From Patescibacteria group bacterium (GTDB lineage: Bacteria > Patescibacteriota > Patescibacteriia > 2-01-FULL-39-33), in contig JBAZMW010000005.1 in the NCBI GenBank assembly GCA_041649575.1, positions 38,734 through 102,733 on the forward strand: a stretch of 64,000 nt of DNA. Direction: 5' to 3'. The notes below the pieces were generated by a model. That model ran no database searches, was not told the origin of the DNA, and was given only the letters and a program-made list of their open reading frames with translations. Position 1 is the stretch's first letter; every line of letters starts with the position of its first letter. A program made the translations under genes and the position numbers. Positions 35,043-48,593 of the stretch are shown here, piece after piece.

Positions 35043-35150
35043 ATGGTGTCAGGCCAAAATCAATAACAAGCAGTTCTTTGACACTTTGGCCTGTGAGAAT
35101 ATAGGAAATTGAAGAAGCGAAGTAAAACCAGGCGAGAAGGAAGACAAATC

Positions 35151-36938
35151 ATGAAACATCCGAAACATCTGGACCTTTGGAGTTGTTTCCCGCATGACTG
35201 TTATCCAAATATCTTGGATAATCAGAGGGACGCTCTCCGGGTCATCGAGCAGGAAGGCGGTTGCGCTCTATTGCAACTGCCGACCGGCTCAGGCAAGACA
35301 GCAGTGGGGTACGCTTTTCTCAAGGCCGTCTTGAAGAGGGCTGAGGGGCCGGTGTACTATGTCGTTCCCACCAAGACGCTGGTGGAGCAGGTCAGAAGGC
35401 TCCACCCCGACGTCAAGATCATATTTGGTCGAAACGAATACTCATGTCTGTTCTACCCCGATCAGGAGCTGAAGGCCGACGAAGTGCCTTGCTCGATGCT
35501 GCACGATTGCCCGCATCGCGTGGACCAGGAAACTGGCCAGACCGCTGTGCCCGGCGTCAAGCCCTGTCCTTATTTGCAGAAGAAGTGGGAGGCGAGCCAA
35601 GGCGGTATCGTGGTTTGCACTACGGCGTTCTTTCTCTTCACCCACTTGTTCGCCAGCGAAGACGCCAAGCCGGCAGCGCTGGTGATCGACGAAGCCCATG
35701 GCATTGCTCATACGGTTCGCGGTTGTCTCTCCTACGAGATTACCGACTACCATCTTGGGCGGGCGGTGGAGCTACTACGGCCAGTGGACAACGAACAGGC
35801 CGAGCGACTTGACGCTTTCTTGCGGACGATGGTTCGTATCATCAAGAAGAAGGCGTCTGGCGAGCGGCAGATCATCGAGGATGAGGAGGTCGCCAAGCTG
35901 CTGGATAAGCTCAAGCAGATCAACATCACGCGACTGGGAGAAAAGGTGCGCCAGGCGATTAGGCAGGGAGTAATCGACGCCAAAGCGGAACGCGAAACCC
36001 TGCGTCGGCTGGAGATTGTCTTACGCGACTTGTCGCATTATGCCCGATCGCTCGAATACTCCCGGCCTAACGAGAAGCGTAACGCCCTCAACTACACCTA
36101 TGCGTTTTGGAGCCAGGAGCGCGCCGAAGGCGAGCGGGTGAAGTACCGTCTGTTCATCAAGTGCTACTATGTGGCGCCGCTCATACGGCGGATGTTGCCG
36201 GAGATGACTGTGGCTTACTCGGCGACCATCGGCGATCCCGAAGTGTTCGGTTTCGAGACTGGCATTGAGGCGCCGTTTCACAGCTTCGGTTCGGACTTCC
36301 CGGTTGGCAAAACGCAGATTTTTGTGCCGACCGATACGCCGAATTTGGCCGTCAACGTTCGTGGTCGTCAGGATCGCACCAGGGCGCTAAGGAGGATCGC
36401 CAAGGCCTGCCGCCGTTTTGCCGATCAAGGCAGGCGGTCGCTGGTGGTGGTGATCTCCAACGAGGAACGCGCTAAGTTCCTGACGCTCGCCGGCGAGGAA
36501 GGCGTCGCAGCCGTCAGCTACGGTAATGGCGTCAAGCCAAAAGACGCGGCCCTGAAGTTCAAGGAGGGTGAGGGTGATGTCTTGGTTGGCACAGCGGCCA
36601 ATTACGGAGAGGGCTTTGACTTACCCAAGGGCATCGCTCCGGTCATCTTCTTTCTCCGGCCAGGATTTCCGCATCCGCACGATCCGGCGACAGTGTTTGA
36701 GGAGAGGCGATTCGGCGGCATGCGTTGGCGGATCTGGAATTGGCGTGTGATGATGGAGGCCTTGCAGGTGCGGGGTCGCAACATCAGAAGCGCCGAGGAT
36801 GTGGGCGTCTGCTTCTTCATTTCCCAGCAGTTCCGGCGGTTCGTTTTCGCCGCCCTGCCCGACTGGTTGCAGCCGGCGTATTGTGGCGATAAGGACTGGG
36901 AGGAGTGCCTTGAAGAGGCGGAGCGATTGCTTTCCTAG
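35151..36938 (+). CDS. XPD/Rad3/DinG-family Fe-S DNA helicase (superfamily 2, DEAH)
   Basis: Walker A LQLPTGSGKT, motif Ia YYVVPTKTL, four Cys between Ia and II (C-SCLF..PCSM..DCPH..KPCPY) as in the XPD/DinG Fe-S domain, motif II LVIDEAHG, motif VI QVRGRNIRSAEDVGV. Start at ATG 35151 (RBS GAAGGAAG); the track start at 35109 is TTG. Confidence 0.8.
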   Translation: MKHPKHLDLWSCFPHDCYPNILDNQRDALRVIEQEGGCALLQLPTGSGKTAVGYAFLKAVLKRAEGPVYYVVPTKTLVEQVRRLHPDVKIIFGRNEYSCLFYPDQELKADEVPCSMLHDCPHRVDQETGQTAVPGVKPCPYLQKKWEASQGGIVVCTTAFFLFTHLFASEDAKPAALVIDEAHGIAHTVRGCLSYEITDYHLGRAVELLRPVDNEQAERLDAFLRTMVRIIKKKASGERQIIEDEEVAKLLDKLKQINITRLGEKVRQAIRQGVIDAKAERETLRRLEIVLRDLSHYARSLEYSRPNEKRNALNYTYAFWSQERAEGERVKYRLFIKCYYVAPLIRRMLPEMTVAYSATIGDPEVFGFETGIEAPFHSFGSDFPVGKTQIFVPTDTPNLAVNVRGRQDRTRALRRIAKACRRFADQGRRSLVVVISNEERAKFLTLAGEEGVAAVSYGNGVKPKDAALKFKEGEGDVLVGTAANYGEGFDLPKGIAPVIFFLRPGFPHPHDPATVFEERRFGGMRWRIWNWRVMMEALQVRGRNIRSAEDVGVCFFISQQFRRFVFAALPDWLQPAYCGDKDWEECLEEAERLLS

Positions 36939-36989
36939 TATCACGGACTGGCTCGCCATGGCTGCGCCTTGCTTGCCACTGCCTGCCGT

Positions 36990-37486
36990 CGTCCGCCAAG
37001 GGGCGGAGATCTGGTCCATCCGGGTCTCCGCCACATTCTTTGTTTTCAAACGTCGCTCGGCAACGTTGGGTCTTCAATGGCTTACCGCTGTTGCGCGTCG
37101 CAAGGGGCGAGGATGGTCTTTGACTAATTCTCGCCATTCTACACTTGTCAAAGAGATTCTTTGGCAGATGTGGTCTTTATGAGGTAGCGTATTCTTCAGT
37201 TGAGCTCAGTCTAGCTCGGTACAGCTGAGCGCCGCAGCCATTTCCAAGGGGCGGGGGTTGGGCTTGCCCAAATCTCCGCCAACGCTTATCTTCTCGGCAA
37301 TGCTTGGCACAGTATCCCAGTGTTGTGCGTCGCTGAGTTAGCCAAGGGATGGGACTGGTCAAACGGTCTCATCAAGATTATTTTTCTGGGCACGTCTCAG
37401 TATTCAATGGCCCGCTGCTGTTGAGTAGTGCAGAGCCCCCAGTCCAAGGGGCGGGAATCCATCGTGGTTCCCGTCGATTTTTTTTA
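36990..37486 (+). repeat. Second block of the GC-hairpin repeat family (5 copies) downstream of the helicase, ending in a T-run
   Basis: Copies near 37000, 37105, 37248, 37342 (variant GATGGGAC/GTCTCATC) and 37448. All are preceded by CCAAGGGG. The last is followed by TTTTTTTT. Confidence 0.7.
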
Positions 37487-37540
37487 TTTAAAATTAATTG
37501 CTAAATTCTAGGTTTTAAGCTAAAATATTCGTAAATCCCC

Positions 37541-39247
37541 ATGTCTTACACCATAGAAAAAATCAAAAAGCAAATTATCGAACAGGTCTCTGGCGCCGTA
37601 GGCCAGAAAATCGATAAAAGCCAGCTGGAAGTGACGGTGCCGCCGGACGCCTCTTTAGGCGATTTGGCCGTGCCCTGTTTTTATCTGACCAAACTGCTGC
37701 GGCGTTCGCCCAACCAGATTGCCGACGAGCTGCAGGCCAGAATCCGTCCGACAGGACTGATCAAGTCGGTGCAAAATGTCGGGCCTTATTTGAATTTTTT
37801 TGTCAGTAGCGGAGTTTTTGGCAAGGAGGTTTTAAAAGAAATAGCCAGATTAAAAGATAAATACGGCCGCGGCAAATTAGGCGAAGAAAAAGTAATGATT
37901 GAGTTTTCCCAGCCCAATACCCACAAAGAATTTCATATCGGCCACGTGCGTAATGCGGTTTTGGGTGATAGTTTGGTGAAGCTTAATAAGTTCGCCGGAC
38001 GCAAAGTGGTGGCGGTCAATTATATTGGCGATATCGGCGCTCATGTGGCCAAGTGTTTGTGGGCGCTTAAAAAATTTCACCAGCAGGAAGAACCGCCAAA
38101 GAATAAAGGCAAATTTTTAGGTCAGATTTATACCGAAGCGGTGAGAAAAATAGAAAGCAATCCCCAGTTCAAGCGAGAGGCCGATGAGGTTTTGCAAAAA
38201 TTGGAGCGAGGCGACAAAAAGATGCTGGCTTTGTGGCAGAAAACCAGGAAGTGGAGTTTGGTGGAGTTTGAGGCGATTTACAAAACGCTGGGCATCAAGT
38301 TTGATCAAATTTTTTATGAGAGCGAGGTGGAGCAGCCGGGCAAAAAGATCGTTGAGAAGCTGCTAAAAGACGGCTTGGCCGAAAAATCGGAAGGTGCCGT
38401 AATTATCAATTTGGAAAAATACAATTTAAAAAATTTTTTACTGCTCAAATCCGACGGCTCATCGCTTTATTCCACCAAAGACCTGGCCTTGGCCGAGCTC
38501 AAATTCAAAAAATTCAAAATTGACAAAAGCGTGGTGGTAGTCGACAGCCGACAAACTTTTTATTTGCAGCAACTATTCAAAACCCTGGAAGTCATCGGCT
38601 TCAAAAAAAAGATGGAACATATCGCTTACGAGTTCGTCACCTTAAAGGATGGCGCCATGTCTTCGAGAGCGGGCAACGTGGTGTTGTTTGAAGATTTTTT
38701 TGAAGAAATGAAAGCTCTGGCCAAAAACGAAACCAAGAAAAGGCACGAGAATTGGCCGGCCAAAAAAATCAGCCAAGTGGCCCGACAGCTGACTTTATCG
38801 GCTGTTAAATTCAATATGCTGAAAATCAGCAACAGCAGCATCATTGTTTTTGACAAAAATGAAGCTTTGAGTTTTGAGGGCTTTACCGGCCCTTACCTGC
38901 AATACACTTTAAGCCGCATTGCCAGTTTGCTAAAAAAGAGCCAGACCGTTGTCGCCGCCAACATTGATTACAGTAAATTAAACAGTGACTTGGAAAAAGA
39001 AATTATTTTGAAGCTGGCGGAGCTGCCGGAGGTTATTAAGCGGGCGACAGCAACCAGCGAACCCAGCGAACTGGCCAAGTATTTATTTGATTTGTCCAGG
39101 CTGTTTTCTAATTTTTATCAGAGTTTGTCGATTTTGACCGCCGAAGAAAAAACCAAAAAAGCGCGATTGACGCTAGTGGTGGCGGTCAGGCAGGTTTTGG
39201 TTAACGGTTTGAATCTGTTGGGCCTGGAAGCACTGGAGCAAATGTAG
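37541..39247 (+). CDS. argS: Arginine--tRNA ligase
   Basis: HIGH motif HIGHVRNAVLGD, class I core, DALR anticodon-binding C-terminus ending in ..EQM. 568 aa. Confidence 0.9.
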   Translation: MSYTIEKIKKQIIEQVSGAVGQKIDKSQLEVTVPPDASLGDLAVPCFYLTKLLRRSPNQIADELQARIRPTGLIKSVQNVGPYLNFFVSSGVFGKEVLKEIARLKDKYGRGKLGEEKVMIEFSQPNTHKEFHIGHVRNAVLGDSLVKLNKFAGRKVVAVNYIGDIGAHVAKCLWALKKFHQQEEPPKNKGKFLGQIYTEAVRKIESNPQFKREADEVLQKLERGDKKMLALWQKTRKWSLVEFEAIYKTLGIKFDQIFYESEVEQPGKKIVEKLLKDGLAEKSEGAVIINLEKYNLKNFLLLKSDGSSLYSTKDLALAELKFKKFKIDKSVVVVDSRQTFYLQQLFKTLEVIGFKKKMEHIAYEFVTLKDGAMSSRAGNVVLFEDFFEEMKALAKNETKKRHENWPAKKISQVARQLTLSAVKFNMLKISNSSIIVFDKNEALSFEGFTGPYLQYTLSRIASLLKKSQTVVAANIDYSKLNSDLEKEIILKLAELPEVIKRATATSEPSELAKYLFDLSRLFSNFYQSLSILTAEEKTKKARLTLVVAVRQVLVNGLNLLGLEALEQM

Positions 39248-39345
39248 GAAAAATTTAAAACTAAAAGTTTAAAGCTCAAAAGGTAAAGTAGGTTAGAGGG
39301 AATGTTTTAAGTTTTTAGTTGTTTGTGCTATAATATAACTGCAAT

Positions 39346-39729
39346 ATGAATAGTAGCGACTATAAAATCTTATTAGTCGAAGACGAGCCGGAACTGGTCC
39401 AGTTGTTCAGTAACGCTCTGAAAAACGAGGGTTTTAAGATGGAGTTGGCCACTGACGGCCATATTGCTTTGAAAAAAATCGCCGAATTCAAGCCAGATTT
39501 AATGCTTTTGGATTTGGTAATTCCCCAGCTGGATGGTTTTCAGGTTTTGGAAAAAATTAAAAAAGAAAAACAGGACAAGAAGATGCTGGTCTATGTTTGG
39601 AGCAATCTGACCCAGGAGAGCGAAATCGGCCGTGCCAAGAAATTAGGCGCTAGCGGCTATCTAATCAAGTCGGATTATACGCCCACCAAACTAGTTGCCA
39701 AAATAAAAGAAATTTTACGGATTCAATAA
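39346..39729 (+). CDS. Single-domain response regulator (CheY-like receiver)
   Basis: KILLVEDEPEL.. and DLMLLDLVIPQLDGF (phospho-acceptor Asp). 127 aa. Extended -10 TGCTATAAT upstream. Confidence 0.8.
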   Translation: MNSSDYKILLVEDEPELVQLFSNALKNEGFKMELATDGHIALKKIAEFKPDLMLLDLVIPQLDGFQVLEKIKKEKQDKKMLVYVWSNLTQESEIGRAKKLGASGYLIKSDYTPTKLVAKIKEILRIQ

Positions 39730-39769
39730 AATATTAAATTGAAAATAGATAATTAATAAAGAAATTGTT

Positions 39770-39964
39770 ATGAAACCAGCAGTTAACGACAGTTGCATCG
39801 GTTGCGGCACTTGCGAAAGTATTTGCCCGGCAGTCTTTAAGGTGACCGAAAAGGATGGCCGAATGGTCGCCATAGTTTTGGAAGCCGACTTGGCGGCGGA
39901 AAAAGCCAAGATCGAGGAATCTATCAGTTCTTGTCCGGTGCAAGCCATTACTTTGGGAGAGTAA
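39770..39964 (+). CDS. Ferredoxin (single 4Fe-4S/3Fe-4S cluster)
   Basis: CIGCGTCESICP plus a distal CP motif. 64 aa. Confidence 0.7.
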   Translation: MKPAVNDSCIGCGTCESICPAVFKVTEKDGRMVAIVLEADLAAEKAKIEESISSCPVQAITLGE

Positions 39965-40073
39965 GGGAATTGTAAAAAAGGTGTCCGCGAGTCGGGCGTC
40001 TTTTTTGTTTAATTAAAAATTGACTAAAACAGCAGAAATTGTTAAGATAAGAGCAATTTTTAAATTAAAAATT

Positions 40074-43000
40074 ATGAACAATATAATTGCTGACAAAGAA
40101 AAAGAAATTCAAAAATTTTGGCAAGATAATCAAATTTTTGAAAAGTCATTGGCGCAAACCAAAAACGGCCAGCGTTACAGTTTTTATGATGGCCCGCCGT
40201 TTGCCACCGGCACCCCGCATTACGGGCACCTAGTGGCCAGTCTTATGAAAGACGTGGTGCCGCGGTTTTGGACGATGCGCGGGCATTATGTGGAGCGGCG
40301 TTGGGGCTGGGATTGCCACGGACTGCCGATAGAAAACATGGTGGAGAAAGAGCTGGGTTTTAAGAATAAAAAAGACATTGTCGAATATGGCATTGCCAAC
40401 TTCAACGAGTACTGCCGCAGCAAAGTTTTGACGTATGTGGCGGAATGGAAAAAAACCATCAAACGATTCGGCCGCTGGGCAGACATGGAAAACCCCTACA
40501 AGACCATGGACGTGGATTATATGGAAAGTATTTGGTGGGTTTTCAGACAGTTGTGGGACAAAGGCTTAATTTATGAGGGCTACCGCTCAATGCATATTTG
40601 TCCCAGGTGCGAAACGACTCTAAGTCAGTCGGAAGTGAGTGAGGGCTATCGCGACGTTGAAGATCTTTCCGTCACTTGGAAATTCAAAGTGCTCCCACCC
40701 CCCCATTCCCCCCCTCGGGCAGAGGGGGAAGATATTCCCACCTATTTATTGGCCTGGACAACAGTGCCTTGGAGCACCCTGAGCACCATGGGCCTGGCCA
40801 TTGGCGCTGATTTTGATTATGTCAAAGCTAAAGTAAAAAACGAACACCTTATTTTTATCAAAGATAAACTGGAAGAAGTAATGGCCGGTGTTAGCAATTA
40901 TGAAATTATTGAAGAGTTTAAGGGCAGCAAGATGATTGGCTGGGAATATGAGCCGGTCAGCGATATTTTCAAAAATTTGCCGGAAGTGAAAAATAAAAAA
41001 AATGCCTATCATGTTTTTGCCGCCGATTATGTGGAAGCGACCGAGGGCACGGGCATCGTGACGATTAACGGCTCATATGGCGAGGTGGATTTGCTCTCCG
41101 CCCAGCAAAATGATTTGCCGGTACTGATGGATGTGAAGCTGGATGGCAGGTTTGCCGATTTTGCCGGTGCTTATGCCGGCCTGGATGTCAAAGACGCCCA
41201 GGTCAAGTTTGTGGCTGATATGGAAAAGAAGGGTTTGGTTTGGAGCAGTGAGAAATACACCCATTCCTATCCCCATTGCTGGCGCTGTGATACCCCGCTT
41301 TTAAATTATTCGACTTCCTCCTGGTTTGTCAAAGTGACAAAAATCAAAAACCAGGCGCTGGCTTTGGCCAAACAGATCAATTGGTCGCCAGCGCATATCA
41401 AGGAAGGCCGTTTTGGCAAGTGGCTCGAAGGCGCACGCGACTGGTCGATTAGTCGTCAGCGGTTTTGGGCGAGCGTGATTCCGATTTGGAAATGCGTTTG
41501 TGGCGAGATGAAGGTCTTGGGTTCGGTCGACGAGTTATATAAAAGCTCTAGCGATAACCCCCCGCAGATTACTAAGGTTATTTTTGTCAGGCACGGTGAA
41601 GCCGAAAACAATATTAGCCATATTAATTCCAACTCCTTGGATAAATATCCATTAACCAAAAAGGGCGCTGGACAAGTAAGTGAATCGGCGGCAAAAATAA
41701 AAGAAATTTTGGCAGAATCTTCGACAAAAGCCGTAATTTTCAGTTCTCCTGTCTTAAGAACTAAAGAAAGCGCGGAAATAATTTCTCATTATTTGGGATT
41801 GAAATATGAATTATCCGACGAAATTAAAGAGGTTGATTTTGGTATCGTGGAAGGAAAACAACTGGATGAATTAATGGATGAATATAATCCTTTGCCGGCG
41901 GATAAAAAGTGGAATTTTAAAAATGGTCAAACCGGAGAATCTCAAAAAGATATACAAGAACGGATGTATAAATGGTTCAAAAAAGTTTTAGAGGAAAATA
42001 AAAACAAAATAATAATCATAATTTCTCATGGCGACCCCCTTATGGCGTTGATAAATAAGATTAAAGGCAAGACAATAGAGGAACATGTTTTATCTTTAGA
42101 GAGCGATTCATATATTCAAAAAGGAGAAGTCAGAGTTGCTTATGTTATGAATGAAACTAAATTGGAAATAGATTTACATAAGCACAGCATCGATAGGGTG
42201 GTTTTAAAATGCGAGAAGTGCGGAAACGAGATGAGTCGTATTCCCGATGTTTTGGACACCTGGTTTGATAGCGGCTCTATGCCTTATGCGCAGCAGCACT
42301 ATCCGTTTGCCAATAAGGAAAAATTTGAAGCCGGCTTTCCGGCGCAGTTCATTGCCGAAGGCGTGGATCAGTGTCGCGCTTGGTTTTACTATCTGCACGT
42401 CAACGCCGCCGCCATTACAAACAAAATCGCCTACGAAAACGTCATTGCCAACGGTATTGTACTCGCCCAGGACGGTCGCAAAATGAGTAAAAAATTACAA
42501 AACTATCCGGAGCCAGAAGCGTTGATGGAAAAGTATGGCGCCGATGCCCTGCGTTTTTATTTATTATCCGCGCCGGTGATGGCGGCCGAGAATTTGAATT
42601 TCTCCGAAGCCGGAGTAAAAGAAGCGATGCAGAAAGTGGTGATGCTTTTAAATAACATTTTGAATTTTTATAAGTTGTATGCTGATGTCATCCCGACTGA
42701 AGCTGTGGGTCGAGTGGAAGGATCCCTTAGAAAAGAAAGGGATTCCTCCGTTACTTCGCCAGCTGGCGACTCCGGTCGGAATGACAATGTGCTGGATCAG
42801 TGGCTCTTGGCCAAATTAAATTTATTAATTAAAGAGGTGGCTGGAGCGATGGAGGCGTATGACCTGCCGCGGGCGGTGCGTCCGATCGCCGGATTTATAG
42901 ATGAATTTTCCACTTGGTGGCTAAGGCGTTCGCGTGACAGATTTAAGGGGGCAGACGAAAAAGATAAACAGCAAGCCCTGGCTGTTTTTGGGCATACGCT

Positions 43001-43670
43001 TTTAGAATTATCAAAAGTGATGGCGCCGTTTACTCCGTTTATCGCCGAGCAGGTTTATAAGGAAGTGGGCCCGTCCAGCCAGGGTGGCCGGGCAAGCGGT
43101 GAGCAGGAATCAGTGCATTTAGAAAAATGGCCTGAAGAATCAGAAATATTAATTAAGGAAGAGGTTATTAAACAAATGGAACAGGTGAGAAAAATCGTAG
43201 AATTAGGCTTGGCCAAACGGGCCGAAGCGGGAATTAAGATTCGGCAGCCGCTCGGAAACTTTCAATTTTCAATTTTCAATTTTCAAAATAACGCCGACCA
43301 GTATTTAAAAATTATCGCCGACGAACTTAATGTAAAAAAAGTTGTTTATAACAAAAATCTCGGCCAAGAAATAGAGTTAGACACGGAGATTACCAAGGAG
43401 CTGAAGCTGGAGGGCGTGGCGCGAGAATTGGTTCGCACTATTAATAATTTGCGCAGAGAGGCCGGGCTGACAATTCAAGATCAGATTAAAATTGACTGGC
43501 AATCGGAGGGCGAAACAATCAGGCAGGTTTTTGCGGTTGAAAGTTTAGTCGAGGAGTTGAAAAGGGCAACGATTACCAAGGAATTTTTAGACAAGGACAA
43601 CCAGGGCCAAGTGGCGGAAATCAATGGTGAAAAAATTAAGCTGGAAATAAACAGGACCATACCTTCTTAA
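40074..43670 (+). CDS. ileS: Isoleucine--tRNA ligase with an inserted histidine-phosphatase (PGAM-like) domain
   Basis: HIGH (PHYGHL) and KMSKKLQNYP motifs. About 230 extra residues between the two halves of the zinc knuckle (WKCVCGE ... KCEKCGNEM) carry RHGEAENN, SSPVLRTKESAE, EVDFGIVEG and ISHGDPL. Start placed at MNNIIADKEKE. Confidence 0.9.
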   Translation: MNNIIADKEKEIQKFWQDNQIFEKSLAQTKNGQRYSFYDGPPFATGTPHYGHLVASLMKDVVPRFWTMRGHYVERRWGWDCHGLPIENMVEKELGFKNKKDIVEYGIANFNEYCRSKVLTYVAEWKKTIKRFGRWADMENPYKTMDVDYMESIWWVFRQLWDKGLIYEGYRSMHICPRCETTLSQSEVSEGYRDVEDLSVTWKFKVLPPPHSPPRAEGEDIPTYLLAWTTVPWSTLSTMGLAIGADFDYVKAKVKNEHLIFIKDKLEEVMAGVSNYEIIEEFKGSKMIGWEYEPVSDIFKNLPEVKNKKNAYHVFAADYVEATEGTGIVTINGSYGEVDLLSAQQNDLPVLMDVKLDGRFADFAGAYAGLDVKDAQVKFVADMEKKGLVWSSEKYTHSYPHCWRCDTPLLNYSTSSWFVKVTKIKNQALALAKQINWSPAHIKEGRFGKWLEGARDWSISRQRFWASVIPIWKCVCGEMKVLGSVDELYKSSSDNPPQITKVIFVRHGEAENNISHINSNSLDKYPLTKKGAGQVSESAAKIKEILAESSTKAVIFSSPVLRTKESAEIISHYLGLKYELSDEIKEVDFGIVEGKQLDELMDEYNPLPADKKWNFKNGQTGESQKDIQERMYKWFKKVLEENKNKIIIIISHGDPLMALINKIKGKTIEEHVLSLESDSYIQKGEVRVAYVMNETKLEIDLHKHSIDRVVLKCEKCGNEMSRIPDVLDTWFDSGSMPYAQQHYPFANKEKFEAGFPAQFIAEGVDQCRAWFYYLHVNAAAITNKIAYENVIANGIVLAQDGRKMSKKLQNYPEPEALMEKYGADALRFYLLSAPVMAAENLNFSEAGVKEAMQKVVMLLNNILNFYKLYADVIPTEAVGRVEGSLRKERDSSVTSPAGDSGRNDNVLDQWLLAKLNLLIKEVAGAMEAYDLPRAVRPIAGFIDEFSTWWLRRSRDRFKGADEKDKQQALAVFGHTLLELSKVMAPFTPFIAEQVYKEVGPSSQGGRASGEQESVHLEKWPEESEILIKEEVIKQMEQVRKIVELGLAKRAEAGIKIRQPLGNFQFSIFNFQNNADQYLKIIADELNVKKVVYNKNLGQEIELDTEITKELKLEGVARELVRTINNLRREAGLTIQDQIKIDWQSEGETIRQVFAVESLVEELKRATITKEFLDKDNQGQVAEINGEKIKLEINRTIPS

Positions 43671-43733
43671 GCTTAAATAAAAAAGACGAGCCCGATCCTT
43701 GCGTCTCGGGCTCTAACCTGCCGGTAGCAGTCC

Positions 43734-43862
43734 CTTATTCTTCGGGGCTGCTCCCATCGTCTTCTTCATCGCCAGTCCGCTCGCCTCTGGCGCCCACTAG
43801 ATGGGCTACCATTGGTGCTTGCAGGACTGCCTGAAGGTGTTCTGGCAGAATTTCTGTCGGCA
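43734..43862 (-). CDS. Candidate small acidic protein (42 aa), GC-rich
   Basis: MPTEILPEHLQAVLQAPMVAHLVGARGERTGDEEDDGSSPEE. A strong SD AAGGAG lies 7 nt upstream of the ATG. Below the ORF-track size cutoff. Confidence 0.25.
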
Positions 43863-43971
43863 TGCTTTTCTCCTTGTATCAGCCAATGTGCGTAGGGTTT
43901 ATTATATGTTATAAAGCTTCTTTCGTCAAGCTTTCTAGAATTTTTACTATTTTTATGTATAATAAAGGTAT

Positions 43972-44550
43972 ATGATCGCTTATCTCAAGGGCCAAATTTA
44001 TCATAAGTCCAGTTTTTTAAAAAAGGACAATTTTGTTGTTGTCAGTGTCGGCGGGGTGGGCTATAAAGTTTTTATTTTAAACAGGGAGGCGGAACATTTC
44101 AGTGTTAATGAGGAAGTGGAATTTCATGTTTACACTCAAGTGGCCGAGGGAGTGTTGGATTTGTATGGCTTTGTTTCCCGCGAAGAACTGGAGTTTTTTG
44201 AAGTGTTGATTTCTATTTCCGGCATCGGGCCGCGAAGCGCCCTGGGAATTTTACAAAAAGCCAAACTTGATGATTTGAAAAAAGCGGCGCAATCGGGCAA
44301 TGCCGAAGTGCTCAATAAAATTTCCGGCATCGGGCCCAAAACTGCGCAAAAAATAGTTATTGGACTGAAAGACAAGCTGGCCGACAGCGATGGTGGCGGC
44401 GAGTGGGACGCACGGTTCGGCGACGCTTTGGAAGCGCTCATAGGGCTGGGTTACTCTGCCAGTCAGGCACGAGAAGCGCTGAATTTGTGTCAGTCGCAAG
44501 AGATGACGGAAAAAGTCAAAGAGGCTTTAAAAATTCTAAGTCAAAAATAG
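43972..44550 (+). CDS. ruvA: Holliday junction DNA helicase subunit RuvA
   Basis: MIAYLKGQI N-terminus, OB domain, two HhH motifs (ISGIGPRSALGIL, ISGIGPKTAQKIV), C-terminal domain III. Confidence 0.85.
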   Translation: MIAYLKGQIYHKSSFLKKDNFVVVSVGGVGYKVFILNREAEHFSVNEEVEFHVYTQVAEGVLDLYGFVSREELEFFEVLISISGIGPRSALGILQKAKLDDLKKAAQSGNAEVLNKISGIGPKTAQKIVIGLKDKLADSDGGGEWDARFGDALEALIGLGYSASQAREALNLCQSQEMTEKVKEALKILSQK

Positions 44551-44566
44551 ATCAAAAAATAAAAAC

Positions 44567-44594
44567 AGACCGCCAGTTGGCGGCCTGTTTTTAG
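44567..44594. terminator. Bidirectional terminator between ruvA and typA
   Basis: AAAAACAGACCGCCA-GT-TGGCGGCCTGTTTTT. Confidence 0.5.
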
Positions 44595-44602
44595 CTAAAA
44601 AG

Positions 44603-46390
44603 TTAAGAAGCTTTTCGGGCCTGTCTTAGTCTGTCTATTTCGGTCAGCAGTTGTTTGCGCAGGCGGATGCTCTGGGGAGTGATTTCTAAATATTCATCCT
44701 CGGCCATGGTTTCCAGCCCTCTTTCCAGGGTCAGCTGCCAAGGCGGAGTCAGCTTGATAGTTTCATCCGAGCCGGAGGCACGCATATTGGTTAGGTTTTT
44801 ACCCTTAATGGGATTGACGGTTAAATCGTTGCCTTTGGCCACGTTGCCAATAACTTGTCCCTCATAGAGATTCTCTCCCGGACCGATATAAAGCCAGCCG
44901 CGATTTTGCAGATTTTCCAAAGCATAGGCGGCGGCTTTGCCGCTGGACAGGGAAACCATCGAACCAACATCACGCTTATCGATGTTGCCAGCATAGGGCT
45001 TAAAGCCGATGAAGCGCGAGCAAAGAATGCCCTCGCCCCTGGTGTCGATGGTAAATTCGCCACGATAACCCAAAAGTCCGCGAGTCGGGATGTTAAAAAT
45101 AATTTGATTCTGATTGTTGGTTTGTTTCATTTCCAAAATATTGGCGCGGCGTTTGGAGAGTTTTTCAATTACTACCCCGGCATAATCGCCAGGGACGCTA
45201 ATGGTCACTTCTTCGTAAGGCTCTAGTTTTTGCCCGTCGGTTTCTTTGATAATTACCTGTGGTTGGGAGATTTGCAGCTCAAAACCCTCGCGGCGCATGT
45301 TCTCTATCAGAATGGCGATATGCAATTCGCCGCGGCCGTAGACTTTGTAGAATTCCGAAGCGGAAAAATCAACCTTTAGACCGACGTTAACCTCCAGTTC
45401 TTTAAGCAGACGTTCTTTAATTTGTTTGCTGGTGACCAGCTTACCTTCGCGGCCGCCGAACGGCGAGTTATTGACCAAAAAATTCAGACAGATGGTCGGC
45501 TCGTCAATGGAAATCGCCGGCAACGGCTCCTGGTCGGCGAAAGAACAGACGGTTTCCCCGATATAAATATCGGGCAGCCCCGCAATAATTATAATATCGC
45601 CGGCAGTGGCGCTCTGCGCCTCTTCTCTTTTTAGGCCGTTGAAAGTAAAAAGTTTGGTGATTTTTCCGCTGCGGGTTTCGCCGTTGGCTTTTTTTATTAT
45701 CACATTGTCGCCGGTTCCAACCAGGCCTTCATAAATACGGCCAATAGCCAGACGCCCCAAAAAATCATCATAAGCCAGATTGAAAGGTTGGAGCCGCAGG
45801 GGCTTGGCGGTGTCGGAAAGGGCGGGAGCGACTTTGGCAATAATTGTCTCCAGTAGCGGCGTTAAATCATTTGAGCGGTCGTCTAGGTTTAATTTGGCGA
45901 CTCCTTCACGGGCCACCGTATAAACCACCGGAAAATCCAATTGTTCATCACTGGCTCCCAAATCCAAAAATAACTCATAGACTTCTTCTTGCACTATTTC
46001 CGGCCGGGCGGCGGTTTTGTCGATTTTATTGATCACCACTATCGGTTCGAGTCCCAATTCCAGTGATTTTTTTAGAACAAAACGGGTTTGAGGCATGGGG
46101 CCTTCCTGGGCGTCAACCACCAAAATGACCGAGTCGATTGAGCGCAATACCCGCTCCACTTCCGAACCAAAATCAGCGTGTCCGGGAGTATCGACGATGT
46201 TGATTTTGGTGTTTTTATAGAATAAAGAAGCGTTTTTTGAATAAATAGTTATGCCACGTTCTTTTTCCAAGGCATTGGTGTCCATGCTAAAATCAGCCGT
46301 CACCATGCCGGTTTGTTTAAGCAACTGATCGGTTAAAGCGGTTTTGCCATGATCGACGTGAGCGATGATGGCGATATTTCTGATTTCCAT
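44603..46390 (-). CDS. typA: Translational GTPase TypA/BipA
   Basis: [20 protein letters not shown]1 motif. EF-G-like domain layout without domain IV. 595 aa. Confidence 0.9.
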
Positions 46391-46506
46391 GAATTTTTAA
46401 AAATAAATCGTCTGAGTAGAAACTCTAACACATTTTTTGTTTTTAGTCAAAATAAAAAAGCCAACATAGCTTTAAAAGATGGTTGATTATTAATTTTTTA
46501 CGGAGA

Positions 46507-47145
46507 TTATTTTTTACTAGGCAGTTTGCGTCTTAGTAATTCGACCAATATAGGGACTAAGGAAATGACTATAATTGCCATGATAGCCAGACTGAAGTTT
46601 TCTTTCACCCAACTAATATTGCCGAAGAAATAGCCGGTTAAAAAGAAGAGGAGTACCCAAATAATCCCCCCAAAAATATTATAAGCTAAAAATTTGGGAT
46701 ACTTCATCTTGCCCATGCCGGCGACAAAAGGAGCAAAAGTCCTGATAATAGGAATGAACCGGGCAAGGATAATTGTTTTGGCACCGTGCTTTTCATAAAA
46801 ATTTTCAGCCCTTTTCAGATTACCCTGGTTAAAGAACCAGCTGTTTTCTCGGGTAAAAAGCTTCCTGCCGAATTTTTTCCCCAGCCAGTAATTGACGGAA
46901 TCGCCCAAAACTGCCGCCAAGCAGAAAATAAGAAGAGTCAGATAAAAGTGAAGCAAACCGATAGCGGCAAAAGTTCCAGCCGCGAACAATAAAGAATCGC
47001 CGGGCAGAAAGGGCATAACAACCAATCCGGTCTCCACAAAAATAATCAGAAATAACAAAGAATAAATCAAAGAGCCATAGGTGTTAATTATTAATCCCAG
47101 GTACTCGTCGATGTGTAAAATGATTTCTAGCAGTTGAATAAACAT
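46507..47145 (-). CDS. DedA/SNARE-associated family membrane protein
   Basis: VMPFLPGDSLLFAAG signature. 212 aa with multiple TM helices. Confidence 0.7.
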   Translation of the reverse strand: MFIQLLEIILHIDEYLGLIINTYGSLIYSLLFLIIFVETGLVVMPFLPGDSLLFAAGTFAAIGLLHFYLTLLIFCLAAVLGDSVNYWLGKKFGRKLFTRENSWFFNQGNLKRAENFYEKHGAKTIILARFIPIIRTFAPFVAGMGKMKYPKFLAYNIFGGIIWVLLFFLTGYFFGNISWVKENFSLAIMAIIVISLVPILVELLRRKLPSKK

Positions 47146-47207
47146 AAAAATATTATAACCTCTGGCTGTTTTTCTGGCAATTGTCAGAAAAATAAGGAAG
47201 TGATAAG

Positions 47208-48593
47208 ATGTTGGTAATAAAGAAAATTATAAGGATGAAAACACTGTTAAAAAAAATAATTCCCAAAAATTTACTAAACCAATATTATAGAATGTTGGCG
47301 CTTTTTGCTAATTATTTTTACTTAAAACCAGCGGAGAAGATGGTGGTTATTGGTGTCACTGGCACCAATGGCAAATCCACCACCTGCCTGCTAATAGCCA
47401 AAATCTTAGAAGAGGCTGGCTATAAGGCAGGAATCACCTCCACCGCGATTTTTAAAGTGGCCGACCAGGAATGGCTCAATGATATTAAAATGACTATGCC
47501 GGGCCGTTTGGCTTTGCAAAAAATGTTAAAGAGAATGCTAAAAGCCGGCTGCAGGTATGCGGTGGTCGAGACCTCGTCAGAAGGGATCAAACAGTTCAGG
47601 CATTTGGGAATCCATTATGATCTCGGCGTTTTTACCAACCTAACCCCAGAGCACATAGAGTCGCACGGCGGTTTTGCCAACTATAAAAAAGCCAAATTAA
47701 AATTATTTGAGCATTTAGAGAAGCAGCCGAACAAAATCATAGCAAACAAAAAAATTAAAGAGGTAATCGTGGCCAATGGCGATGATGAGCACGTCAAGGA
47801 CTTTCTAAATTTTAAAGTTGATGAAAAATATGTTTATCAAGTTCAAGGTTCAGAAGCGGAAATCTCGGACAAATTTAGGACTGAAAATTTAGAACTGAAA
47901 ATTCTCAAAGCCGAAGAAGTTAGGTTTTTGAATCAAGGAATTTATTTTAGGCTGGAAAACATAGAATTTAATTTGAAATTGTTTGGGCGGTTTAATGTTT
48001 ATAATGCCTTGGCGGCGATAGCGGTGGCGTTGTCGCAAGGCGTGCCGCTAACAATTTGTAAGGCGGCTCTGGAAAAGGTGGAGGTGATGCCCGGCCGGAT
48101 GGAATTCATAAACGAAGGTCAGGATTTTAAATTTTTGGTTGATTACGCGCCCGAACCGGAGAGTATGAAGCAACTTTATCAGGCTATAGACGATTATAAC
48201 ATCAGGGCCGGAGGTAGAATTATACATATTTTTGGTTCTTGTGGCGGCGGGCGGGATAAGGCGCGTCGGCCGATTTTGGGACAGATGGTGGCGCAGAGGG
48301 CGGATTTTTTGATTATAACCAACGAAGATCCTTATGACGACAGTCCCCAACTGATCATTGATCAGGTGGCTCAAGGGGCGCAAAGCGAAGGAAAAGTAGT
48401 AGGAGAAAATTTATTTAAAATTTTAGATCGGCGTGAAGCCATAAAATTTGCTTTAAATTTAGCCAAGAAAAATGATTTAATAATACTTACCGGAAAGGCC
48501 TGTGAGCAAGCAATCTGCGTGGCTAATGGTCAAAAAATTCCCTGGGACGATCGAAAAGTGGCCAGAGGAGAATTAAAAATGATTAAAAAATAA
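47208..48593 (+). CDS. murE: Mur ligase family protein, probably UDP-MurNAc-tripeptide synthetase MurE
   Basis: VIGVTGTNGKSTT P-loop, DYAPEPESM (the DYAHTP-like motif of MurE), C-terminal ligase domain. The true start may be downstream of 47208. Confidence 0.7.
   Translation: MLVIKKIIRMKTLLKKIIPKNLLNQYYRMLALFANYFYLKPAEKMVVIGVTGTNGKSTTCLLIAKILEEAGYKAGITSTAIFKVADQEWLNDIKMTMPGRLALQKMLKRMLKAGCRYAVVETSSEGIKQFRHLGIHYDLGVFTNLTPEHIESHGGFANYKKAKLKLFEHLEKQPNKIIANKKIKEVIVANGDDEHVKDFLNFKVDEKYVYQVQGSEAEISDKFRTENLELKILKAEEVRFLNQGIYFRLENIEFNLKLFGRFNVYNALAAIAVALSQGVPLTICKAALEKVEVMPGRMEFINEGQDFKFLVDYAPEPESMKQLYQAIDDYNIRAGGRIIHIFGSCGGGRDKARRPILGQMVAQRADFLIITNEDPYDDSPQLIIDQVAQGAQSEGKVVGENLFKILDRREAIKFALNLAKKNDLIILTGKACEQAICVANGQKIPWDDRKVARGELKMIKK

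Follow-up and report, generated by a model that had tools for sequence, protein, structure and literature searches.

When the gene of an aminoacyl-tRNA synthetase (aaRS) contains the motifs of a second enzyme, it has to be asked whether both enzymes are intact, how the one came to lie within the other, and whether the two have anything to do with each other. Such a gene, coding for an isoleucyl-tRNA synthetase (IleRS), is found in the 64,000-nucleotide stretch of Patescibacteria DNA that was analysed here and that is referred to as the window. The original prediction had described a complete histidine phosphatase domain which is inserted between the two halves of the zinc knuckle of this synthetase.

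The synthetase and the site of the insertion

The gene and its surroundings have the following features. The two upstream genes are taken from the ORF list and the knuckle halves were placed by the location of their motifs.

37541-39247, + strand: ArgRS gene, upstream of the IleRS gene
39346-39729, + strand: single-domain response regulator, also upstream
40074..43670, + strand: IleRS gene (type 2, IleRS2-like) with nested phosphatase, 1198 aa plus stop
40218..40229, + strand: HIGH signature (HYGH); H49 and G51 are invariant in an alignment of 85 sequences
41487..41507, + strand: first zinc-knuckle half, WKCVCGE (Cys474, Cys476)
41541..42167, + strand: inserted module of ~209 aa (aa 490-698), made up of a short linker and then a complete histidine phosphatase fold
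42207..42233, + strand: second zinc-knuckle half, KCEKCGNEM (Cys713, Cys716); the Rossmann-fold strand WFDSGSMP comes next
42480..42494, + strand: KMSKS signature (KMSKK); K803 and K806 do not vary among the 85 aligned sequences

The reading frame had been described as continuous and indeed a single unbroken ORF extends on the forward strand from 40020, or from the ATG at 40074 where the public annotation (P0160) starts, to 43670. P0160 is 100% identical to the window protein and is present in NCBI, JGI and ENA. NCBI names it 'class I tRNA ligase family protein [Patescibacteria group bacterium]'. With the ileS model TIGR00392 the protein scores 811.6 bits, above the equivalog cutoff of 621.4, even though the match is split by the insert. 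Pfam matches on the whole protein are tRNA-synt_1 (in two parts), Anticodon_1 and DUF5915, and the best secondary NCBIfam matches are MupA/MupB-type (type 2) models. In the AF2 model of the full protein (pLDDT 88.3, pTM 0.83), the fold includes a CP1 editing domain and type-2 C-terminal domains and lacks a C-terminal zinc-binding domain. The best PDB match of this model is IleRS2 from Priestia megaterium (8C8V) with a target-normalised TM of 0.82. This enzyme and the IleRS from T. thermophilus (1ILE) share the architecture, the HIGH and KMSKS signatures, CP1 and the type-2 C-terminal domains with the window protein. The CP1 motif is GTGIVTINGSYGEVD in the subgroup to which the window IleRS belongs, while the canonical form is GTGVVHIAPAYGEED. 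Three short extra loops of the protein are GC-rich, and no repeat of them was found anywhere in the window. The window IleRS keeps the signature motifs and the overall IleRS2 fold.

Alignments to Pfam, NCBIfam, yeast IleRS (8WND) and orthologs agree in placing the insert between the two knuckle halves, as had been proposed. The zinc-binding motif belongs to the CP3 subdomain. It has been described for the IleRS from T. thermophilus (PMC7191050), the zinc-binding CP3 of which resembles that of the window protein. CP3 is peripheral, and its topology differs among IleRS structures (PMC7191050). While CP3 is compact in the known structures, the knuckle loop of the window protein accommodates a second enzyme of ~206 aa. 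In the HMMER alignment to 8WND, residues 8-489 and 699-1094 of the query correspond to residues 13-489 and 498-885 of the chain. Five insert-less orthologs (P0163-P0166, P0178) have zero residues at the insert position. The IleRS2 reference alignment did not reveal a native insertion of comparable length, as only a short native loop is found at this site in references and orthologs. The insert junctions read ...ELYK / SSSDN... and ...KLE / IDLHKH....

Two details of the original prediction had to be adjusted. Its estimate of ~230 residues holds for the distance between the two Cys pairs (233 aa), but ~25-30 of these residues are the native knuckle, and the net insertion is just ~206-209 aa when yeast IleRS 8WND and the insert-less orthologs are taken as reference. 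Also, both knuckle halves had been described as CxxC, which is correct for the second (KCEKCG), while the first is CxC (KCVCG). Relatives have either CxC or CxxC at this position. All four cysteines (C474, C476, C713, C716) are invariant in 85 IleRS sequences, with and without insert, and would staple the base of the insertion.

Fold and catalytic residues of the inserted domain

Each of the motifs that had been quoted for the phosphatase was recovered at its place in the translated ORF. They are listed together with the predicted active-site residues, for which conservation is given as counts among 82 Patescibacterial IleRS inserts.

41577..42083, + strand: Pfam His_Phos_1 (PF00300), aa 502-670, E=1.8e-28, profile positions 1-165 of 194
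41589-41612, + strand: RHGEAENN
41589..41597, + strand: RHG with Arg506 (82/82), predicted catalytic nucleophile His507 (82/82) and Gly508 (77/82)
41652-41675, + strand: LTKKGAGQ
41742-41777, + strand: SSPVLRTKESAE
41757..41759, + strand: Arg562, second phosphate-binding arginine (SSPVLRTKE motif), 82/82
41829-41855, + strand: EVDFGIVEG
41829..41831, + strand: Glu586, predicted general acid (EVDFG motif), 74/82, aligned to the E-x-x-x-G of PhoE
42021-42041, + strand: ISHGDPL
42027..42029, + strand: His652, second active-site histidine (ISHGDPL), 82/82

As originally predicted, the domain is a complete histidine phosphatase, and it belongs to branch 1, with a PF00300 match, the full alpha/beta/alpha fold and all catalytic residues. 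When the insert is excised, PF00300 is matched with E=1e-29. The match of the whole protein and that of the excised stretch score 99.9-104.1 bits, far above the gathering score of 21.7. Seven residues (R506, H507, S558, R562, E622, R630, H652) are conserved in all 82 inserts. For R562 this is independent of the search pattern, which did not include this residue. Both the R and H of RHG and the second histidine (His652) are also invariant in an alignment with free-standing homologs, and the insert can be aligned end to end with free-standing proteins of ~195 aa. Its pLDDT is ~95 in the full model, and the insert-only model reaches a pLDDT of 93 and a pTM of 0.90. With the latter, Foldseek returned 310 matches in the PDB (E<=0.001), and the 50 listed ones all belong to the superfamily. 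At the top are phosphoserine phosphatase from H. thermophilus (4IJ5/4IJ6), a mycobacterial hydrolase, CobC, GpgP and PhoE, with query-normalised TM values of 0.67-0.75. As judged from sequence and structure model, the insert is a whole, confidently folded PhoE/PspA-like branch-1 histidine phosphatase. Between P0161 and P0162, two insert-bearing IleRS, dN/dS is ~0.09 for the insert and ~0.04 for the flanks. Throughout much of the phylum, strong purifying selection has kept the catalytic set (Arg506, His507, Arg562, Glu586, His652, Glu622, Arg630), and the nested phosphatase is apparently active.

Among characterized enzymes, PhoE (YhfR) from Geobacillus stearothermophilus (PDB 1EBB, 1H2E) has the same fold, the same set of RHG histidine, two arginines, glutamate and second histidine, and a size of ~200 aa. 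The insert matches PhoE by sequence with E=1.4e-9 and PhoE-type structures with a Foldseek probability of 1.0 and a query-normalised TM of ~0.7. The metal-independent phosphoserine phosphatase PspA (4IJ5), CobC (6E4B) and GpgP (4PZ9) are related small branch-1 enzymes with the same fold and catalytic constellation. However, all four are free-standing, while the domain from the window is nested and only ~22% identical to them. Because of this low identity, and because all curated equivalog cutoffs are missed, the substrate of PhoE-type enzymes cannot be transferred to the insert. A true phosphoglycerate mutase was rejected by the scores for dPGM_arch (100 bits, cutoff 225), pgm_1 (31.7, cutoff 81.7) and GpmB (57, cutoff 261), and also by the substrate motif, which is EVDFGIVEG (E-x-x-x-G-x-x-E-G) rather than the ERHYG of dPGM. 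The equivalog cutoffs for PspA (61 bits, cutoff 350), CobC (81, cutoff 163) and SixA (29, cutoff 74.5) are missed as well. Judged by its motifs and by the family thresholds, the domain is more in keeping with a phosphatase than with a mutase. The bifunctional RNase H/acid phosphatase (NF005567; Rv2228c type) likewise has a PhoE/CobC-like phosphatase fused to a nucleic-acid-handling enzyme, but in this case the fusion is terminal and the partner enzyme is another one. The insert scores 77 bits on its phosphatase half, with a cutoff of 326.

Distribution of the nested and the operonic form

A search for the same insertion in related genomes, as had been suggested, found it in frame in at least 80 Patescibacteria species genomes. 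The best 80 loci among GTDB species-representative genomes are all from Patescibacteria MAGs and show a continuous flank-insert-flank match. Among the best 150 representatives of 50%-identity clusters, the match to the flank-insert-flank profile is complete and unbroken in most cases. The in-frame architecture recurs in more than 100 protein clusters, and PF00300 is present in 70 of the 120 best full-length relatives.

At the loci of P0161 and P0162, the gene order is ArgRS - response regulator - (ferredoxin) - IleRS, as in the window. The part with response regulator, ferredoxin and IleRS is conserved at the loci of the insert-less P0163 and P0164, and this shared gene order shows that these loci are orthologous. 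In trees, orthologous and syntenic IleRS with and without the insert are interleaved. As these are neighbour-joining trees without support values, the number and direction of gains and losses are uncertain. A free-standing copy of the phosphatase was not found in the window, the flanks of insert-bearing loci yielded only one weak match (L013), and no stand-alone phosphatase was found beside P0163 and P0164.

In the window, the GC content at third codon positions (GC3) is 0.317 for the insert and 0.56 and 0.50 for its flanks, with a sharp step at each junction. This value is below the minimum (0.393) of 722 segments of equal length from 13 other ORFs. There is no GC3 step at the insert in P0161 and P0162. 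Averaged over 74 loci, the GC3 of the insert is 0.045 lower than that of the flanks. Probably, the insert in the window came, or was replaced, by recombination from a relative with lower GC content. The low GC3 could partly reflect weaker codon selection instead of transfer.

The same phosphatase subfamily also occurs as a separate gene directly before an insert-less ileS, the start of which it adjoins or overlaps. An example is P0309, the gene of which has a 4-nt overlap with the start of ileS. Free-standing loci were collected from metagenomes by a scan with a 7-sequence alignment. In 45 of the 68 evaluable loci, which were seeded from one subfamily (P0309-like) and many of which stem from a small number of digester and sediment metagenomes, the IleRS starts at most ~110 nt from the stop of the phosphatase. 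It lies within 1.5 kb in a further 11 of the 68. Two of these 11 loci (L090, L129) were inspected, and in both a second phosphatase stands in tandem between the first one and the IleRS. The genes downstream of free-standing phosphatases exceed the IleRS equivalog cutoff. The inserted copies L149, L157 and L165, which again lie at the CP3 site, have the phosphatase signature of the operon type. In the source databases, free-standing homologs are annotated as PhoE or 'probable phosphoglycerate mutase'. The linkage by operon or fusion proves co-expression and selection for linkage but is no proof of mechanistic coupling.

Several IleRS have two phosphatase copies or an additional NUDIX, GNAT or rhodanese domain. 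NUDIX is nested in P0253, P0254 and P0136, P0253 also has a nested rhodanese, and GNAT occurs together with the phosphatase in P0149. In addition, a NUDIX gene adjoins the free-standing phosphatase P0283, and one is located directly downstream of ileS in L060, L070 and L077. An abutting NUDIX gene is a recurrent but minority pattern (3 of 85 insert loci, 0 of 80 operon loci). A precedent for an unrelated enzyme domain nested in IleRS is NF040702 (ileS_w_GNAT, 'isoleucine--tRNA ligase, N-acetyltransferase domain-containing'), where GNAT is probably located at CP1 (profile gap ~283-463), while the phosphatase of the window is located at CP3. The window protein was rejected as a member of this family (261.9 bits, cutoff 1999, no GNAT match). 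With the CP1 editing domain of class Ia synthetases, IleRS has another hydrolytic domain within its Rossmann fold. However, this domain has a different fold, deacylates mischarged tRNA and is inserted at another point, and it is universal in IleRS while the phosphatase is lineage-restricted and dispensable. In the literature, including the AARS Online paper and a survey from 2026 that covers 96,219 IleRS sequences, we found no account of an IleRS insertion that is a phosphatase, a NUDIX domain or specific to Patescibacteria.

Possible functions of the nested phosphatase

We consider it likely, with a probability of about 0.6, that an active phosphatase is nested in the CP3 knuckle loop of the IleRS of Patescibacteria (CPR) as a dedicated partner of this synthetase. 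The domain would be a phosphomonoesterase that operates via a phospho-His507 intermediate with Glu586 as general acid, and it would serve the IleRS either in cis (nested) or in trans (operon). Since there are orthologs that lack the domain, aminoacylation itself would not require it. The substrate would most likely be a small phosphomonoester, and probably a nucleotide-derived one because NUDIX hydrolases recur as nested or adjacent partners. A glycolytic intermediate would be less likely, as would be an aminoacyl-adenylate, which had originally been suggested beside a nucleotide substrate or a regulatory moonlighting role. An aminoacyl-adenylate is a chemically unlikely substrate for a phosphomonoesterase that uses a phospho-histidine intermediate.

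It is conceivable, but we doubt it, that in these reduced genomes the domain is an ordinary housekeeping phosphatase (phosphoserine phosphatase, PGM-like or PhoE-like) without any interplay with IleRS, which hitch-hikes on ileS since fusion or operon placement ensures its constitutive co-expression. Among solved structures, the domain comes closest to general phosphatases of small molecules (PhoE, PspA, CobC and the riboflavin-pathway HFP), and the database annotation of free-standing homologs is in line with this. It would also fit that orthologs do without the insert and that CP3 is peripheral and of variable topology (PMC7191050). However, a random process is expected to scatter over many highly expressed genes, while the linkage among aaRS was restricted to IleRS in the searches made. 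It has two independent genomic forms, nested and as an overlapping upstream gene, it spans two divergent IleRS lineages, and one nesting site has been used repeatedly. In addition, every metabolic equivalog threshold that was tested is missed. A macromolecular target (tRNA(Ile), IleRS itself or a partner protein) is improbable. The phosphatase might, for example, remove a 2'/3'-phosphate from the acceptor end after nuclease damage or reverse the modification by a kinase toxin, and its tether to the synthetase core would bring it near the bound tRNA. The histidine phosphatase superfamily does include protein phosphatases (SixA, PGAM5, Sts), and the insert resembles the phosphatase half of the RNase H fusion, although below its cutoff. 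On the other hand, the score for the SixA model is far too low, and we know of no branch-1 histidine phosphatase that acts on RNA ends. For the yeast IleRS-tRNA complex, the part of the publication considered here describes few acceptor-stem contacts, which are made to the catalytic domain, and no contact of CP3 with tRNA (PMC11685878).

A role in immunity or detoxification has a similarly low, if not slightly lower, probability. Here, the phosphatase together with GNAT, NUDIX and rhodanese would inactivate a phosphate-bearing IleRS inhibitor or a toxic nucleotide analogue directly at its target. The latter three are small-molecule-modifying enzymes that are nested in Patescibacterial IleRS, NCBIfam holds a separate model for IleRS with GNAT, and the patchy, recombining distribution is like that of accessory or defence traits. 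An enzymatic precedent is provided by HIT hydrolases, which detoxify aminoacyl-adenylate mimics and have homologs in Parcubacteria (bioRxiv 10.1101/2020.03.04.977132). However, the loci show no tie to biosynthetic or toxin genes, and for a resistance trait the domain is unusually widespread and ancient. Also, no phosphorylated IleRS inhibitor is known to us. It is very improbable that the domain is a dead structural or regulatory spacer, a pseudo-enzyme kept as ligand sensor or scaffold. This is a general possibility for nested domains, with nothing direct in its favour, and it is at odds with core residues that are kept in 82 sequences (E586 in 74) at only ~35% domain identity and with the low dN/dS of the insert. 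The probability of an assembly chimera, an intein or another selfish mobile insertion is negligible, even though the GC drop across the insert and the patchy phyletic distribution might suggest such an origin. The original prediction had already noted the absence of intein boundary residues, and there are neither Cys/Ser ... His-Asn residues at the junctions nor a Pfam match to a Hint or intein domain. An intein or mobile element was rejected, as an endonuclease domain, splice residues and flanking terminal repeats were not found either. A misassembled chimeric read is excluded because more than 80 independent species genomes and more than 100 protein clusters show the same in-frame architecture, and because the identical protein is found in three archives.

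Beyond the reading as a dedicated partner, we tentatively suggest that the IleRS of Patescibacteria might be the hub of a hitherto unrecognised, IleRS-specific accessory enzyme system, consisting of the phosphatase (sometimes duplicated) and sometimes of NUDIX, GNAT or rhodanese. The phosphatase would then act on a product, an inhibitor or an RNA end tied to the synthesis of Ile-tRNA. If this is true, it would be the first non-editing hydrolase that is functionally integrated in the catalytic core of an aaRS, and it would be exchangeable between a nested and an operon form.

Aminoacyl-tRNA synthetases are among the most studied enzymes, and new biology has come to light time and again from their accessory domains, such as those for editing, tRNA binding and eukaryotic signalling. 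In the case described here, the catalytic core of IleRS contains an intact second enzyme throughout much of a major bacterial radiation, and a zinc knuckle is seen to be able to act as a permissive, stapled docking site that takes the insertion of a whole domain. The occurrence of one pair both in nested form and as overlapping genes is a classic Rosetta-stone signal of functional partnership. There are also consequences for automated metabolic reconstructions. These may score IleRS as missing because NCBI names insert-bearing proteins only 'class I tRNA ligase family protein', and they may count the nested domain as a phosphoglycerate mutase. For the CPR, which are largely uncultured and have many unexplained protein insertions, the nested phosphatase provides a testable entry into their physiology.

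A phosphatase domain nested in the IleRS zinc knuckle

The synthetase is encoded by a single long ORF in the window (40020/40074-43670, forward strand); residue numbers count from the ATG at 40074, where the public annotation likewise begins the gene. According to Pfam, the class-I synthetase domain tRNA-synt_1 is split in two by a His_Phos_1 match at residues 502-670 (E=1.8e-28 in the whole protein, 1e-29 with the stretch excised), and all motifs quoted in the original prediction of a complete histidine phosphatase domain were found in this ORF where they had been placed. The host is an IleRS by the NCBIfam model TIGR00392 (811.6 bits, cutoff 621.4); next in rank come MupA/MupB-type (type 2) models. 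The nested phosphatase is real, being well above chance level. A full-length AlphaFold model has a pLDDT of 88.3 (about 95 in the insert) and a pTM of 0.83; in comparison with P. megaterium IleRS2 it reaches a TM of 0.82, normalised to the target. The synthetase is intact.

With HMMER, residues 8-489 were aligned to residues 13-489 of the yeast IleRS chain (8WND) and residues 699-1094 to 498-885, so that about 209 query residues stand in place of about 8 chain residues; the predicted insertion is thereby delimited against a reference IleRS. In orthologs without the insert the native element consists of two C-x(1-2)-C pairs about 34 residues apart, after which comes the WFDSGSMP strand. Because this is the CP3 knuckle, the insert is assigned to its loop:

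41541-42167, forward strand: insert, in the zinc-knuckle loop of CP3

CP3 links CP2 to the second half of the Rossmann fold; its topology differs among all solved IleRS, and a zinc motif is present in CP3 of T. thermophilus IleRS (Candida IleRS structure paper, PMC7191050). The four knuckle cysteines are invariant across 85 IleRS sequences, whether or not the insert is present, and the zinc site is inferred to hold the N- and C-terminal ends of the inserted domain together.

Free-standing proteins of about 195 aa align with the insert over its whole length, up to and including the last beta-strand, so that it represents a complete enzyme. By sequence, the nearest solved structure is the broad-specificity phosphatase PhoE (E=1.4e-9), other close ones being metal-independent phosphoserine phosphatase, the riboflavin-pathway histidine phosphatase and CobC. 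A model of the insert only (pLDDT 93, pTM 0.90) retrieved the histidine-phosphatase superfamily in 50 of 50 listed structural matches. Identity with dPGM_arch, pgm_1, GpmB, CobC, PspA or SixA was rejected, as the insert is below every curated NCBIfam equivalog threshold. While dPGM has an ERHYG motif, the insert has the phosphatase-type acid-residue motif E-x-x-x-G-x-x-E-G. On the basis of this motif and the missed thresholds, the insert is filed as a probable PhoE/PspA-like phosphatase, not a mutase.

Recurrence and evolutionary history of the insert

Such proteins have been public for years with precomputed PF00133 and PF00300 annotations. At NCBI, those with the insert are named "class I tRNA ligase family protein" and orthologs lacking it "isoleucine--tRNA ligase". 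A protein identical to that of the window (P0160, on a 114-kb "Patescibacteria group bacterium" contig) is deposited in NCBI, JGI and ENA. The best 80 loci in GTDB species-representative genomes are all from Patescibacteria MAGs, and each gives an unbroken match to the flank-insert-flank query, so the continuous frame described for the window recurs in at least 80 such loci. Record titles include Paceibacterota/Parcubacteria, Minisyncoccia, Buchanan-, Azam-, Colwell-, Liptonbacteria, Harrison-, Yanofsky-, Magasanik- and Moraniibacteria. An assembly artefact is thus rejected, both by the three archives and by this recurrence. When a profile was run exhaustively against 1.84 billion cluster representatives, 1782 matched at E<=1e-30; most of the best 150 matched the whole flank-insert-flank profile in one stretch, and PF00300 is present in 70 of the 120 best full-length relatives.

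The insert is not an intein: Pfam revealed neither a Hint nor an endonuclease domain in the window protein, splice-junction residues are absent from the insert ends, as had been stated from the sequence, and no terminal repeats flank it. Nor is it a dead domain. In an alignment of 82 insert-bearing IleRS, with about 35% identity inside the insert, R506, H507, S558, R562, E622, R630 and H652 are invariant, and G508 (77/82), N513 (73/82) and E586 (74/82) are less strict; a bias from the search pattern is possible for the RHG region only. For P0161 and P0162, the two closest relatives with available DNA sequence, dN/dS comes to about 0.09 for the insert and to about 0.04 for the flanks. The phosphatase active site is intact and under selection.

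The window and the insert-bearing P0161 and P0162 loci share the gene order ArgRS, response regulator, IleRS and, further downstream, RuvA, with a ferredoxin gene between response regulator and IleRS in the relatives. The portion from response regulator via ferredoxin to IleRS also occurs in the insert-less P0163 and P0164 loci, and these loci, with and without the insert, are therefore orthologous. The single-domain response regulator directly upstream of ileS (39346-39729) is conserved irrespective of the insert, and the small ferredoxin gene usually follows it in relatives (L082-L084). Directly upstream of the insert-less ileS, the P0164 locus has a pair resembling a diversity-generating retroelement (bAvd accessory protein and reverse transcriptase).

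In a neighbour-joining backbone tree without support values, insert-less IleRS fall repeatedly within insert-bearing groups. The sister group of the window protein is P0163-P0165, which lack the insert and are 77% identical to it in the flanks; with its nearest insert-bearing relatives, identity is 73% for the flanks and 64% for the insert. Flank and insert divergence are correlated (r=0.64), and the two insert length classes (about 187 and 207 aa) have a distribution that does not follow the backbone. The insert is compositionally foreign within the window. GC3 of the insert, 0.317, contrasts with 0.56 and 0.50 for the two flanks, changes sharply at both junctions, and lies below the minimum (0.393) of 722 equal-length windows from 13 other ORFs in this stretch (mean 0.545, sd 0.079). 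There is no such step in P0161 and P0162, and the mean deficit over 74 other loci is only 0.045. We infer that the insert has been lost repeatedly and, at least occasionally, replaced or acquired by homologous recombination; as support values are absent, the trees do not fix the number of events. NCBI lists one insert-bearing IleRS (P0212, 1304 aa) under the label "Candidatus Nanoarchaeia archaeon". This label and those of free-standing homologs from Diapherotrites and Bathyarchaeia could reflect mis-binning or CPR-DPANN gene exchange.

Three short segments of the window IleRS are rich in GC (0.54-0.69), missing from most relatives and not repeated elsewhere in the window:

40686-40745: first GC-rich segment, PPPHSPPRAEGEDIP, pLDDT about 64
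42687-42791: second GC-rich segment, longer and containing EAVGRVEGSLRKERDSSVTSPAGDSGRNDN, pLDDT <50
43062-43112: third GC-rich segment, GPSSQGGRASGEQ, pLDDT <50

Within the second lies a 14-nt palindrome; at this position P0163 carries an extra segment too, but a different one. The window protein and its closest relatives (P0160-P0166) have GTGIVTINGSYGEVD as the motif of the CP1 editing domain (about 41040-41085, aa 323-338), irrespective of the insert. The canonical motif is GTGVVHIAPAYGEED, and replacement of its conserved His-x-Ala-Pro could affect post-transfer editing. Elsewhere, GC reaches 0.58-0.61 at 36000-37200 (ORF 35109-36938, forward strand) versus a window mean of 0.47, the peak of the profiled stretch 36000-48000.

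Free-standing phosphatases upstream of ileS

Proteins of about 200 aa that stand free are the closest relatives of the insert (named sources are Paceibacterota, Roizmanbacteria, Diapherotrites, Bathyarchaeia and Bdellovibrionales), and among the best 120 matches the domain is fused to no other synthetase family. The free-standing P0309 ends 4 nt within the start of an insert-less ileS on a Paceibacterota contig. A metagenome scan seeded with its subfamily gave 80 loci from more than 25 datasets (38-100% identity to P0309): 76 are free-standing ORFs and three lie inside an IleRS (L149, L157, L165); L154, with an ORF truncated where the contig ends, is not counted. For 68 free-standing loci at least 450 nt of downstream sequence were available. 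In 45 of these, IleRS starts at most about 110 nt from the phosphatase stop codon, mostly with overlap, and in 11 more it lies within 1.5 kb; it is absent downstream in 12, of which 11 form one tight clade. Five downstream genes, drawn from two divergent lineages, score 646-947 bits, each above the IleRS equivalog cutoff.

In the two loci of the 1.5-kb group that were inspected (L090, L129), a tandem second phosphatase copy intervenes, each copy having about 195 aa; L093, L094 and L133 are spaced alike, and each is represented in the tree by a second phosphatase-like ORF as well. L092 and L131 are also two-phosphatase loci, with the first copy outside the inspected stretch. Such tandem phosphatases mirror the two-copy nested forms.

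The inserted copies of L149, L157 and L165 carry the operon-type signature RHGQT.YQ...YPWPE and are nested in the same CP3 knuckle of a different IleRS lineage. The pair is therefore linked in two independent genomic ways, with repeated use of the nesting site. This is strong evidence for selection for a partnership of the phosphatase with IleRS specifically.

Accessory domains and possible substrates

Additional domains are found in several other IleRS of Patescibacteria. Two His_Phos matches occur in the IleRS P0010, P0035, P0116 and P0126; the second match of P0010 lies between the catalytic and anticodon-binding domains and would be a second insertion site. There is a NUDIX domain in the CP1 region of P0253, P0254 and P0136, a C-terminal rhodanese in P0253, and GNAT matches in P0149, NCBIfam already having a separate "IleRS with GNAT" model. 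A NUDIX gene directly follows the free-standing phosphatase P0283, and one adjoins the ileS 3' end in three insert-bearing loci.

Judged by superfamily chemistry, the domain would hydrolyse phosphomonoesters via phospho-His507, with phosphate bound by Arg506, Arg562 and His652 and Glu586 as general acid. An aminoacyl-adenylate, one of the substrates originally proposed, is unlikely since it is an acyl-phosphate anhydride, not a monoester. Our best guess, held with modest confidence, is a small phosphomonoester, probably nucleotide-derived in view of the NUDIX association. Alternatively, the phosphatase may hitch-hike on ileS for co-expression only, or may act on tRNA or protein phosphates; the available excerpts of the yeast IleRS-tRNA study (PMC11685878) describe few acceptor-stem contacts, made with the catalytic domain, and no CP3 contact. 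It may also detoxify an IleRS-directed compound, for which HIT hydrolases acting on aminoacyl-adenylate mimics, with homologs in Parcubacteria, are a conceptual precedent (bioRxiv 10.1101/2020.03.04.977132).

In the literature searched, a scope outside which most subscription journals fall, nothing was found that describes this architecture, its operon counterpart or the set of accessory domains, and a 2026 survey covering 96,219 IleRS sequences makes no mention of phosphatase, NUDIX or Patescibacteria. The feature belongs with synthetases in which an accessory enzyme is nested. What makes the partnership of IleRS and phosphatase of interest is that it is specific, widespread and under selection.
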